Positions 55,168 through 59,036 of a stretch of 64,000 bases of DNA are shown in pieces. The DNA is taken from contig NW_027138796.1 in NCBI RefSeq assembly GCF_035084215.1, forward strand, positions 434,001 to 498,000. Reading direction: 5' to 3'. The notes under the pieces are model-generated. The model was not told where the DNA came from, ran no database searches, and was given only the letters and a program-made list of their open reading frames with translations. The position numbers were made by a program, and so were the translations under genes. The stretch comes from Heptranchias perlo. Its lineage: Eukaryota. The first letter of the stretch is position 1. Every line of letters begins with the position of its first letter.

Positions 55168-56118
55168 ATGTCAGGACAGCCCAGCCCCGTGTTATGCTCT
55201 TCCTGCTCCATGTGGGAAATCAGGGACCCTTCCGGTGTCCCTGACGACCATGTGTGCGGGAAATGTATCCAGCTGCAGCTACTGACAAACCGCATTGCGG
55301 CACTGGAGCTGCGGATGGATTCATTATGGAGCATTCACGATGCTGAGAACGTCGTGGATAGCACGTTTAGTGAGATGGTCACACCGCAGGTAAAGGTTGT
55401 ACAGGCAGGAAGTAATTGGGTGACCACCAGGCAGAGTAAGAAGAGCAGGCAGGCAGTGCAGGGGTCCCCTGTGGCCGTCCCCCTCTCAAACAAATATACC
55501 GCTTTGGATATTGTTGAGGGGGATGACTTATCAGGGGTAGGCAGCAGCAGCCAACTTCCTGGCACCAGGGGTAGCTCTGCTGCACAGGCTGGGAGGAAAA
55601 AGAGTGGAAGAGCTATAGTGGTAGGGGATTCTATCGTAAGGGGAACAGACAGGCGTTTCTGTGGCCGTAAACGTGACTCCAGGATGGTTTGTTGCCTCCC
55701 TGGTGCCAGGGTCATGAATGTCACTGAGCGGCTACAGGGCATTCTCAAGGGGGAGGGTGAGCAGGCAGAGGTCGTGGTCCACATTGGGACCAACGACATA
55801 GGTAGGAAGGGAGATGAGGTCCTGCATCAAGAATTTAGGGAGCTAGGTAGCAGATTAAAGGGCAGGACCTCAAAGGTTGTAATCTCTGGATTACTCCCGG
55901 TGCCACGGGCTAGTGAGTATAGAAATAGGAGGATAGAACAGATGAATGCGTGGCTAAAGAGTTGGTGCAGGAGGGAGGGTTTCAGTTTCCTGGATCACTG
56001 GGCCTGCTTCTGGGGAAGGTGGGACTTGTACAAGTCGGACGGGTTGCACCTGAACCAGAGCGGGACAAATATCCTTGCGGGGAGGTTTGCTAGCACTGTT
56101 GGGGGGGGTTTAAACTAA
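55168..56118 (+). CDS. CR1 ORF1p (zinc finger/leucine zipper plus SGNH esterase), 316 aa
   Basis: CSSC...CGKC followed by heptads; VGDSI, HIGTND and DGLHLN motifs. Confidence 0.92.
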   Translation: MSGQPSPVLCSSCSMWEIRDPSGVPDDHVCGKCIQLQLLTNRIAALELRMDSLWSIHDAENVVDSTFSEMVTPQVKVVQAGSNWVTTRQSKKSRQAVQGSPVAVPLSNKYTALDIVEGDDLSGVGSSSQLPGTRGSSAAQAGRKKSGRAIVVGDSIVRGTDRRFCGRKRDSRMVCCLPGARVMNVTERLQGILKGEGEQAEVVVHIGTNDIGRKGDEVLHQEFRELGSRLKGRTSKVVISGLLPVPRASEYRNRRIEQMNAWLKSWCRREGFSFLDHWACFWGRWDLYKSDGLHLNQSGTNILAGRFASTVGGGLN

Positions 56119-56165
56119 CTTGGCAGGGGGATGGGATACAGAGTGGAGCTACAATAGGGGGTGAT

Positions 56166-59036
56166 GTGCAGCCAAATATAGAGAAAAAAACAAGTCAGCT
56201 TGGAAGACAGGGCAAATATGTAAGGGCAAGGCTGGATGGCATCTATTTTAATGCAAGGAGTCTTGCGAATAAGGTGGATGAACTGAAGGTGTTGATAAAC
56301 ACATGGGAGTATGATATTGTTGCTGTCACAGAGACATGGTTGAGGGAGGGGCAAGACCGGCAGCTCAATATTCCGGGGTACAGAATCTTCAGGCGAGACA
56401 GAGGGGGAGGTATAAGAGGAGGGGGGGTCGCAATATTAATTAAAGAATCAATTACTGCCATAAGAAGGGATGATATATTAGCAGGTTCCTCTAATGAGGC
56501 CATATGGGTGGAGCTTAAAAACAAAAAGGGGGCAAGCACTTTGATGGGAGTGTACAATAGGCCCCCAAACAGTCAGGGGGAGATCGAGGAACAGATATGT
56601 CGGCAAATCTCAGAAAATTGTGCAAATAATAGGGTAATAATCGTGGGGGATTTCAACTTCCCCAATATTAACTGGGATACTCAGAGTGTAAAAGGCTTAG
56701 AGGGTACAAAATTCTTAACGTGCATCCAGGAGAGCTTTTTGAGCCAGCATGTAGAAAGTCCTACAAGAGAGGGGGCGGTACTGGACCTAATTCTAGGGAA
56801 TGTGGCCGGCCAAGTGGAAGAAGTGCTAGTAGGTGAGCACTTTGGTGACAGTGACCATAATTCGGTGAGATTTAAGGTGGTCATGGAAAAGGACAGGGAG
56901 GGGCCGGAAATAAAGGTTCTAAATTGGGGGAAGGCCGATTTTAATAGGATAAGGCAGGATCTGGCCAAAATGGACTGGGATCAGCTGCTTGTAGGAAAAT
57001 CCGCATCGGAGCAATGGGAGTCTTTCAGAAGGGAGATTGAGACCATACAATGGCAACATGTTCCCGTAAAGGTCAAGGGTGGTTCCAAGAACTCCAGGGA
57101 ACCTTGGATGTCAGGGGATATACGAGAATGGATTAGGAAAAAAAGGAGGGCTTTTGGCAGATACAAAAGGCTAAAGACGGAGGAAGCCCTAGAGGAGTAC
57201 AAAAAGTGCAGGGGGATACTTAAAAAAGAAATTAGGAGATCAAGGAGGGGCATTGAAATGACACTGGCGAGCAAAATAAAGGAAAATCCTAAGATGTTTT
57301 ATAAGTATATTAAGGGTAAGAGGATGACTAGGGAAAAAATAGGGCCCATTAGGGACAAAAATGGCAATCTGTGTGTGGAGCCGGCAGATGTAGGAGGGGT
57401 TCTAAATGAATTTTTTGCATCTGTTTTCACTATGGAGAAGGACGATGTAGACATAGAAATACGGCTGGGGGACTGTGATATACTCGAACATATTAACATC
57501 GAGCGGGAGGAGGTATTGGCGGTTTTAGCAGGCCTAAAAATGGATAAATCCCCAGGCCCGGACGAAATGTATCCCAGGCTACTGTGTGAGGCAAAGGAGG
57601 AGATTGCGGGGGCTCTGACACATATATTCAGAACCTCTCTGGCCACAGGGGATGTGCCAGAGGACTGGAGAACCGCTAATGTAATACCATTATTCAAGAA
57701 GGGGAGTAGGGAAAAACCGGGGAACTACAGGCCAGTGAGCCTAACATCAGTGGTAGGAATATTATTGGAAAAAATTCTGAAGGACAAAATTAGTCTCCAC
57801 TTGGAGAAGCAAGGATTAATCAGGGATAGTCAACATGGCTTTGTCAAGGGAAGATCATGTCTGACTAATTTGATTGAATTTTTTGAGGGGGTGACTAGGC
57901 GTGTGGATGAGGGTAACGCAGTGGATGTGGTATACATGGATTTCAGTAAGGCCTTCGATAAAGTCCCCCACAGGAGACTGGTCAAGAAGGTACGAGCCCA
58001 TGGAATCCAGGGTGCCTTGGCACTTTGGATACAAAACTGGCTTAGTGGCAGAAGGCAGAGGGTGATGGTCGAAGGTTGTTTTTGTGACTGGAAGCCTGTG
58101 GCCAGTGGGGTACCACAGGGATCGGTGCTGGGTCCCTTGCTGTTTGTGGTCTACATTAATGACTTGGATATGAATGTAAAAGGTATGATCAGTAAGTTCG
58201 CTGATGATACAAAGATTGGTAGGGTGGTAAATAGTGAGGAGGATAGCCTCAGTCTGCAGGACGATATAGATGGGTTGGTCAGATGGGCGGAACAGTGGCA
58301 AATGGAATTTAACCCGGAAAAGTGCGAGGTGATGCACTTTGGAGGGACTAACAAGGCAAGGGAATACACAATGAATGGGAGGACCCTAGGCAAGACAGAG
58401 GGTCAGAGGGATCTTGGTGTGCAAGTTCACAGATCCCTGAAGGCGGCGGAACAGGTAGATAAGGTGGTAAAGAAGGCATATGGGATACTTGCCTTTATTA
58501 GCCGAGGCATAGAATATAAGAGCAAGGAGGTTATGATGGAGCTATATAAAACACTGGTTAGGCCACAGCTGGAGTACTGTGTGCAGTTCTGGTCGCCACA
58601 CTACAGGAAGGATGTGATCGCTTTGGAGAGGGTGCAGAGGAGATTCACCAGGATGTTACCAGGGCTGGAGCGCTTCAGCTATGAAGAGAGACTGGGAAGA
58701 TTGGGTTTGTTTTCCTTGGAGCAGAGGAGGCTGAGGGGGGACATGATTGAGGTGTACAAAATTATGAGGGGCACAGATAGGATGGATACTAAGGAGCTTT
58801 TTCCCTTCGTTGAGGGTTCCATAACAAGGGGACATAGATTCAAGGTAAAAGGCGGGAGGTTTAGAGGGGATTTGAGAAAGAACTTTTTCACCCAGAGGGT
58901 GGTTGGAGTCTGGAACTCACTGCCTGAAAGGGTTGTGGAGGCAGGAACCCTCACAACATTCAAGAAGCATTTGGATGAGCACTTGAAATGCCATAGCATA
59001 CAAGGCTATGGACCAAATGCTGGAATATGGGATTAG
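56166..59036 (+). CDS. CR1 ORF2p (APE endonuclease plus reverse transcriptase); start uncertain
   Basis: [36 protein letters not shown]. The track start is a GTG; the frame is open from 56094. Confidence 0.93.
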   Translation: MQPNIEKKTSQLGRQGKYVRARLDGIYFNARSLANKVDELKVLINTWEYDIVAVTETWLREGQDRQLNIPGYRIFRRDRGGGIRGGGVAILIKESITAIRRDDILAGSSNEAIWVELKNKKGASTLMGVYNRPPNSQGEIEEQICRQISENCANNRVIIVGDFNFPNINWDTQSVKGLEGTKFLTCIQESFLSQHVESPTREGAVLDLILGNVAGQVEEVLVGEHFGDSDHNSVRFKVVMEKDREGPEIKVLNWGKADFNRIRQDLAKMDWDQLLVGKSASEQWESFRREIETIQWQHVPVKVKGGSKNSREPWMSGDIREWIRKKRRAFGRYKRLKTEEALEEYKKCRGILKKEIRRSRRGIEMTLASKIKENPKMFYKYIKGKRMTREKIGPIRDKNGNLCVEPADVGGVLNEFFASVFTMEKDDVDIEIRLGDCDILEHINIEREEVLAVLAGLKMDKSPGPDEMYPRLLCEAKEEIAGALTHIFRTSLATGDVPEDWRTANVIPLFKKGSREKPGNYRPVSLTSVVGILLEKILKDKISLHLEKQGLIRDSQHGFVKGRSCLTNLIEFFEGVTRRVDEGNAVDVVYMDFSKAFDKVPHRRLVKKVRAHGIQGALALWIQNWLSGRRQRVMVEGCFCDWKPVASGVPQGSVLGPLLFVVYINDLDMNVKGMISKFADDTKIGRVVNSEEDSLSLQDDIDGLVRWAEQWQMEFNPEKCEVMHFGGTNKAREYTMNGRTLGKTEGQRDLGVQVHRSLKAAEQVDKVVKKAYGILAFISRGIEYKSKEVMMELYKTLVRPQLEYCVQFWSPHYRKDVIALERVQRRFTRMLPGLERFSYEERLGRLGLFSLEQRRLRGDMIEVYKIMRGTDRMDTKELFPFVEGSITRGHRFKVKGGRFRGDLRKNFFTQRVVGVWNSLPERVVEAGTLTTFKKHLDEHLKCHSIQGYGPNAGIWD

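Follow-up and report, generated by a model that had tools for sequence, protein, structure and literature searches.

The window examined here, a 64,000-nucleotide stretch of Heptranchias perlo DNA (contig NW_027138796.1, positions 434,001 to 498,000), carries on its forward strand a full-length, young CR1 element of the esterase type at 54450..59125, a long interspersed nuclear element (LINE) with two open reading frames (ORFs). Its 5' end is approximate and lies near 54450-54456, a position reached by 5 of the 24 alignments reported, with 28 sister copies given. At least 150 matches of 98-100% identity were found in the own genome, a vertebrate genome of 3.25 Gb, and by this identity the family is young. 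ORF1 (55168..56118, + strand) encodes 316 amino acids with an SGNH/GDSL esterase domain (PF13472, E 1.6e-15) and the C-terminus GGGLN; its closest named protein matches are from cartilaginous fishes. ORF2 (56094..59036, +) is an open frame of 980 codons in the -1 frame relative to ORF1, with Pfam domains of an APE endonuclease and a reverse transcriptase, and is intact in 31 of the 150 copies listed (our own count). A search of solved structures gave just a weak match to exonuclease III (E 0.53). The 3' untranslated region (UTR; 59037..59125, +) consists of a GGCC-GAAG-GGCC hairpin and an (TATGACTC)n tail; a 3' hairpin and an octamer-repeat tail are features of esterase-type CR1. An SGNH esterase in ORF1 and an APE endonuclease with reverse transcriptase in ORF2 likewise characterise this type. 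The assignment to CR1 is made by domain layout and vertebrate homologues.

ORF2 has no AUG before its endonuclease. The first in-frame ATG (56544..56546, +) lies inside the endonuclease, as the initial annotation had it, but it is codon 151 and not about 125 codons in. The endonuclease domain comprises residues 52-255, and this AUG stands 98 codons beyond its first conserved Asn. Because the Pfam domain begins at residue 52, a start here would cost about 100 endonuclease residues. ORF1 ends with GGT TTA AAC TAA. Its stop codon (56116..56118, +; UAA here, UAA or UAG in relatives) is immediately preceded by the heptamer U_UUA_AAC (56109..56115, +), which is in X_XXY_YYZ phase with ORF1. UUUAAAC is the slippery site of coronaviruses. 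Identical heptamers are present on the same strand in a decayed second CR1 family, at 20760..20766, where an in-frame ATG follows at 20829, and in two repeats of this decayed copy at 34751..34757 and 51090..51096. The three decayed copies are near-identical repeats, and therefore the window holds two lineages, not four. The string GGTTTAAACTAR occurs four times in the window (20758, 34749, 51088, 56107) against 0.28 expected, and four occurrences were reached in 0 of 100 shuffles. Both families share the downstream tract TGGC(A/T)GGGGGATGGGA and then diverge. Apart from the distance to the ATG, the initial annotation had described this junction correctly, including the open -1 frame, the phase of the heptamer, the decayed copies with their ATG and the shared tract.

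The most probable interpretation, to which we assign a probability of about 0.78, is that programmed -1 ribosomal frameshifting at U_UUA_AAC yields an ORF1-ORF2 fusion. Most ribosomes would end at the UAA at 56116-56118 and produce the ORF1 protein (ORF1p). A minority would slip back by one base on the heptamer in a tandem slippage, the Leu-tRNA moving from UUA to UUU and the Asn-tRNA from AAC to AAA, and would then read CUA. The product would be a fusion of ORF1, linker, endonuclease and reverse transcriptase of about 1,290 amino acids, with GGGLN followed by LTWQG at the junction. Pausing of the ribosome would be aided by the adjacent stop codon and by a G tract further downstream, either as a G-quadruplex or through a bound protein, and the outcome would be a high ratio of ORF1p to ORF2 protein (ORF2p). 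Slippage, its efficiency and its stimulator are what we infer from the features of the junction. In favour of frameshifting, the family is young and has about 30 intact ORF2 frames among the 150 copies listed, without an upstream AUG. The fusion had already been proposed in the initial annotation, and it gains support from two properties of the junction, a heptamer and phase that are kept beyond amino-acid need and a -1 frame that is open across unrelated linkers.

For the comparison within the own genome, junction copies were anchored on the DGxHL motif upstream in ORF1, and three duplicates were dropped (n=156). TTTAAAC was found exactly 71 nt after the anchor in 110 of the 156 copies, and TTTAAACTAR inside a 45-nt interval in 124; many copies without the heptamer at 71 nt are decayed or shifted by indels in G runs. 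Genome-wide, TTTAAACTAR-N7-GGGGG gave 19,453 matches, the reversed control 14. In addition, 80 metagenome loci were retrieved by patterns elsewhere in ORF1. Sixteen of them are of the esterase CR1 type and reach the junction; the others end before it or belong to a different, insect-like type. The exact heptamer is present in 14 of these 16, with L066 and L070 deviating. The base 5' of TTA stays T across the codons GGT, GCT, ACT, CAT, TGT, TCT and TAT, and the distant locus L108 retains GCT TTA AAC although its stop codon sits two codons further on. Between deep lineages, in which ORF1 is mostly 20-50% identical, the codon of a conserved Leu is identical in about 49 of 192 cases (our own sum, with the close pair L071/L062 excluded), and fourfold sites are likewise near random. 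The comparative checks suggested in the initial annotation, on heptamer and phase, turn out in favour of frameshifting, and the slippery site is conserved from sharks to amniote-like copies. These comparisons mark the junction as a real, deeply conserved signal of the recoding type.

The protein level gives a similar picture. LN forms the C-terminus in 78 of 85 ORF1 homologues having the DGxH motif, the named ones including sharks, rays, a teleost, frogs, turtles and lizards. Of the 133 new proteins that a deeper profile search added, 88 carried the motif, most of the distant ones being without LN at residue 26. The short tails of distant proteins, 50 of them unique, include 19 with a terminal Asn (background 6%); in 16 of these 19 the ending is LN, GN or KN, 24-39 residues from the motif. 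Such endings fit because X_XXA_AAC-stop would encode them. Viral contigs contained no relative, and in prokaryote contigs one scrap of 506 nt matched. A possible objection is that LN and the stop are kept for the sake of the esterase, that the nucleotide match is incidental and that the family is mobilised by the ORF2p of another family; L and N are indeed invariant beside the catalytic residues in an alignment of 21 sequences. Yet the synonymous choices are frozen at the heptamer and variable elsewhere, LN is missing from this place in many distant esterases, and the family has kept an intact ORF2 of 980 codons. We therefore regard this explanation as exceedingly improbable.

Frameshifting would require that the ribosome, once in the -1 frame, can proceed into the endonuclease. 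The linker between heptamer and endonuclease (56115..56243, +) is open in this frame and has no AUG; it is open in 48 of the 52 copies of the family, two of which have a Met. In 50 of the 52, the -1 frame extends only five codons to the 5' side of the heptamer before it closes. The linkers of the five large families of the own genome are unrelated in sequence and have modal lengths of 128, 167, 200, 155/158 and 269/368/386 nt (from the stop codon to the endonuclease anchor), and all lead into the -1 frame. Among 40 more own-genome copies, chosen by the motif alone, the frame was -1 in 32 of the 37 with an endonuclease anchor (three had none), with new linker lengths of 158, 143, 170 and 242 nt. 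The metagenome loci contributed linkers of 92, 104, 146, 233 and 257 nt, again all into the -1 frame, which is kept over the full range of 92-386 nt. Open linkers were counted in 6/25, 6/16, 7/14 and 6/12 copies of the other four families; the numbers are lower in older families because these have decayed. The chance that a shuffled linker stays open is 0.074 in the family of the window element, 0.03 to <0.001 in others and 0.16 in L072. A codon-position test detected no amino-acid constraint in the linkers, the differences being evenly spread, as expected for a spacer that merely needs to be read through.

Two peculiarities of individual linkers and junctions were noted. The 368-nt linker (L162, L253 and L255, compared with L247, L248 and L273) resembles a chimera, apparently of the first part of the 269-nt linker and the linker of the 143-nt family, joined in frame where the G-tract peptide occurs a second time. 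An additional G in the run 5' of the heptamer brings ORF1 of L039 and L045 into frame with ORF2, and the frames of 1,290 codons at G000:C4:58531860 and G000:C4:58705134 may be of the same kind. Such in-frame copies could be mutations of single copies or homopolymer errors.

The linker also offers a start codon of its own. An in-frame CUG (56232..56234, +) in good context (A at -3, G at +4) stands six codons before the endonuclease Asn, and ORF2 translation could begin at this near-cognate codon through internal entry or rescanning, the heptamer having another role. The strong context, the position just 5' of the endonuclease and the presence of the CUG in 46 of 48 open copies agree with this. 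However, the CUG is limited to this one family, the other four having TTG, TTA, CTT or CTA, and a start there gives no reason why linker and heptamer keep their frame over such different lengths. Such a start is very unlikely in our view. Splicing of ORF2 to an upstream AUG has even less in its favour. The junction of the window family reads CTAAC, which resembles a branch-point motif, but other families have CTAAT, CTAAA, CTAGC or CTAGA at that place. No RNA record with the element was listed, which says nothing about its expression. Contigs from presumed RNA runs pass through the junction colinearly (X1 55908-56718, X4 55878-56797), and the sole joint near it has a depth of 3 and non-canonical ends and does not lead into the ORF2 frame. 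The contigs weigh little here because they drop rare forms and the runs may be DNA; even so, we find splicing hardly credible.

If frameshifting takes place at the heptamer, for which a stimulatory structure would be expected 5-9 nt downstream, its candidate stimulator is a conserved G tract (56122..56135, +), with a G5 at 56126-56130, 10 nt after the heptamer. The G5 is found at this distance in most vertebrate lineages, and a wobble G is kept across different residues. A two-tier G-quadruplex pattern begins 6 nt after the heptamer in the family of the window element and 8 nt after it in the family with the 200-nt linker, and 13 of 18 representatives have a two- or three-tier pattern. The G tract is a candidate G-quadruplex stimulator, a G-run-binding protein being equally possible. 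Loose contig ends from four other organisms cluster where the G tract ends (56135-56136).

Several observations weigh against frameshifting. Glu precedes LN in 3 of 78 unique tails, and on the protein level a Glu codon excludes U at the first slippery position; G_UU is described as a tolerated variant in equine arteritis virus (PMC3542737). Since the profile used for the search itself has LN at its end, the test on terminal Asn may be biased; it is also weakened by the fact that seven of the eight GN tails read QGN and are probably related. In L208 and L214, both single decayed copies, the linker is out of the -1 frame. As for the stimulator, the G-quadruplex pattern is missing in 5 of the 18 representatives, and no conserved hairpin or pseudoknot 3' of the heptamer was detected in 18 copies (z -1.7 to +2.0). 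Over about 1.1-1.3 kb, the search for sequences that could pair with the G tract at long range revealed no shared site, and conserved pairing of the G tract with the 3' UTR, of the type of barley yellow dwarf virus, was not found across copies. Finally, some families carry an AUG at or near the junction. In 15 of 17 copies of a young shark family the junction reads UAAUG, its AUG being in frame with ORF2; two copies of the family are open for 985 codons. Seven amniote-like loci (L062, L063, L064, L069, L070, L091 and L103) have UAGnnAUG or similar, L080 has UAAUG, and two shark families retain a Met in the linker.

The distant loci L107 and L108 are without the G5 and have one hairpin each, 10 nt downstream in L107 and 9 nt in L108 (z -1.3 and -1.4, not significant against shuffles). 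The best duplex between the G tract and the 3' UTR in the element at 54450..59125 reached -14.8 kcal/mol, with 12 better sites within ORF2; the 3' UTR was the best site only in the family with the 155/158-nt linker and in L296. This pairing test comprised 28 copies. No end of ORF2 could be detected in six of them (L289, L290, L295, L299, L301 and L062), nor in L071; L288 and L292, at least, appear joined to the end of another copy. In the decayed family, 20772-20786 can form a 15-bp duplex of -26.9 kcal/mol with 23697-23711 (likewise in the repeat near 51090), which pairs the G tract with the start of the family's own 3' UTR, no other site in the element being better; a comparable duplex of -22.1 kcal/mol is possible in L300, another member of this family. 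This duplex may be due to chance, as other families do not have it and the UTR arm can also pair locally.

The AUGs at the junction suggest termination-reinitiation, as proposed for L1, in which the ribosome would stop at the end of ORF1 and begin again close by in the frame of ORF2, at an AUG if there is one and otherwise at a non-AUG codon; the motif would then be a signal for termination or tethering, and ORF2p a separate protein. UAAUG and UAGnnAUG are known forms of reinitiation junctions in SART1 and the victoriviruses, and the start of L1 ORF2 is thought to be independent of its AUG (for SART1 and L1: PMC3708506, PMC2699510, PMC5009743). UGGGA is found 81-96 nt 5' of the stop codon in 11 of 11 shark representatives; for a termination upstream ribosome-binding site (TURBS) it is expected 40-90 nt upstream of the stop, and in the window element the distance is 96 nt. 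However, UGGGA is missing in the UAGnnAUG loci L062, L063, L064 and L103, and Trp codons are the likely reason for its presence in sharks. Of 116 own-genome junctions with the full motif, just 11 have AUG at the two codons that follow the stop, two sister copies of the UAAUG family carry AAG instead, and in the family of the window element an AUG overlapping or adjoining the ORF1 stop in the ORF2 frame, as expected for stop-start reinitiation of the SART1, victorivirus or calicivirus type, is absent. Moreover, reinitiation leaves the conserved wobble U, the choice of the codons UUA and AAC, the rule that L, G or K precedes N, and the heptamer of L108 without adjacent stop unexplained. We consider this explanation unlikely. 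Yet several other CR1 families do have an AUG at the stop, and therefore reinitiation stays alive as a rival or as a second route, which in some families may coexist with frameshifting. L284 and L285 (G000:C1) represent a second young intact CR1 family, with a SART1-like UAAUG at the same junction and 985 open codons from the heptamer.

Frameshifting might extend well beyond this family. Tentatively, and with less than even odds, canonical CR1 elements of jawed vertebrates would make their reverse transcriptase as a gag-pol-like fusion of esterase ORF1 and ORF2 by a -1 shift on U_UUA_AAC. Instead of a pseudoknot, the stop codon next to the heptamer together with a naturally occurring RNA G-quadruplex or a protein bound to the G run would drive this shift, and esterase LINEs as a broader group would swap between U_UUA_AAC, G_GGA_AAC and UGA-C readthrough to arrive at a fusion. 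Distant insect-like esterase LINEs without LN were seen among the metagenome loci (L110:1214-1460, L119:4001-4240, L124, L125, L132). Their ORF1 ends with TGA-C, and the same frame is open into the endonuclease, except that L119 contains an additional stop; L093 and L106, though in frame, are interrupted. This suggests stop-codon readthrough as a putative alternative path to the fusion. Four distant esterase ORF1 proteins (P0250, P0299, P0314 and P0330) carry FF or FL just a few residues from their C-terminus; on the protein level these pairs could correspond to U_UUU_UUN slippery sites.

The element lies in a tandem array (2583-63974 of the window) with units of about 14 kb, satellites and repeated CR1 fragments. 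On the minus strand, the units contain exons that, judging from their motifs, are presumably alpha-tubulin-like. Among the protein matches, two CR1 proteins labelled Pseudomonas and Carnobacterium (P0008, P0121) are probably host contamination, and two vertebrate gene isoforms ending in a CR1 esterase (P0021, P0109) are probably annotation artefacts or exonised copies.

CR1 is described as one of the dominant LINEs of most vertebrate genomes (PMC13343379, PMC4316615), and the translation of LINE ORF2 as unclear (PMC3708506). If frameshifting holds true, it would explain why a usable AUG of CR1 ORF2 is missing in many families, correct annotations that place the ORF2 start inside the endonuclease, and mean that the esterase ORF1 is tethered to the reverse transcriptase. 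Should a G-quadruplex in the G tract turn out to be the stimulator, CR1 would be a natural case of what a study on engineered G-quadruplexes left open (PMC3919603). We found no report of a CR1 frameshift in the literature searched; this did not cover the primary CR1 papers, and the 1997 papers on chicken and turtle CR1 and the Repbase reports may mention an overlap or frameshift, so that a prior mention is possible. Three papers on CR1 or the esterase, one of them from 2026 (PMC13343379, PMC3905857, PMC4316615), never use the word "frameshift" in their main text, and the available excerpts of these papers do not address how ORF2 is translated. Among elements without long terminal repeats (non-LTR elements), a 2016 review names HeT-A, TART and L1 in its accessible part, and not CR1.

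In its domain layout and 3' microsatellite tail, the element resembles the canonical vertebrate CR1 with esterase ORF1 as described in the same three papers. With SART1 and L1 it shares the bicistronic LINE RNA, and with SART1 some CR1 families share the UAAUG or UAGnnAUG that goes with reinitiation; in contrast, an AUG is missing there from the copy at 54450..59125 and from the majority of shark families, and in the excerpts at hand no slippery heptamer is described for SART1 or L1 (PMC3708506, PMC2699510, PMC5009743). Reporters in which a G-quadruplex drives the -1 shift carry the same heptamer, UUUAAAC; their best spacer was 6-8 nt, a range that includes the 6 and 8 nt to the first G run in CR1, and engineered three-tier G-quadruplexes gave up to about 7% shift, whereas the CR1 pattern is mostly two-tier and not universal (PMC3919603). 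Also close among non-LTR elements are TRE5-A and TRE3-A of Dictyostelium, which a 2018 review states to need a -1 frameshift for ORF2 (PMC5911963). They are of the APE type as well, but unlike CR1 they belong to the L1 clade, live in an amoeba and have an ORF1 that the excerpted review does not describe as an esterase. The heptamer of the window element is an exact match to X_XXY_YYZ in the definition of PMC3542737, and -1 frameshifting is standard in RNA viruses and retroviruses (PMC3542737). CR1 differs from coronaviruses and retroviruses in being a non-LTR element whose stop codon adjoins the heptamer, in having a G tract where no hairpin or pseudoknot was found, and in being known here from its sequence alone. 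Its predicted organisation is nevertheless that of the ORF1a-1b junction of coronaviruses and nidoviruses and of retroviral gag-pol: an in-phase X_XXY_YYZ at the end of the first ORF, the polymerase ORF in the -1 frame, and a fusion protein that would be made in a fixed ratio.

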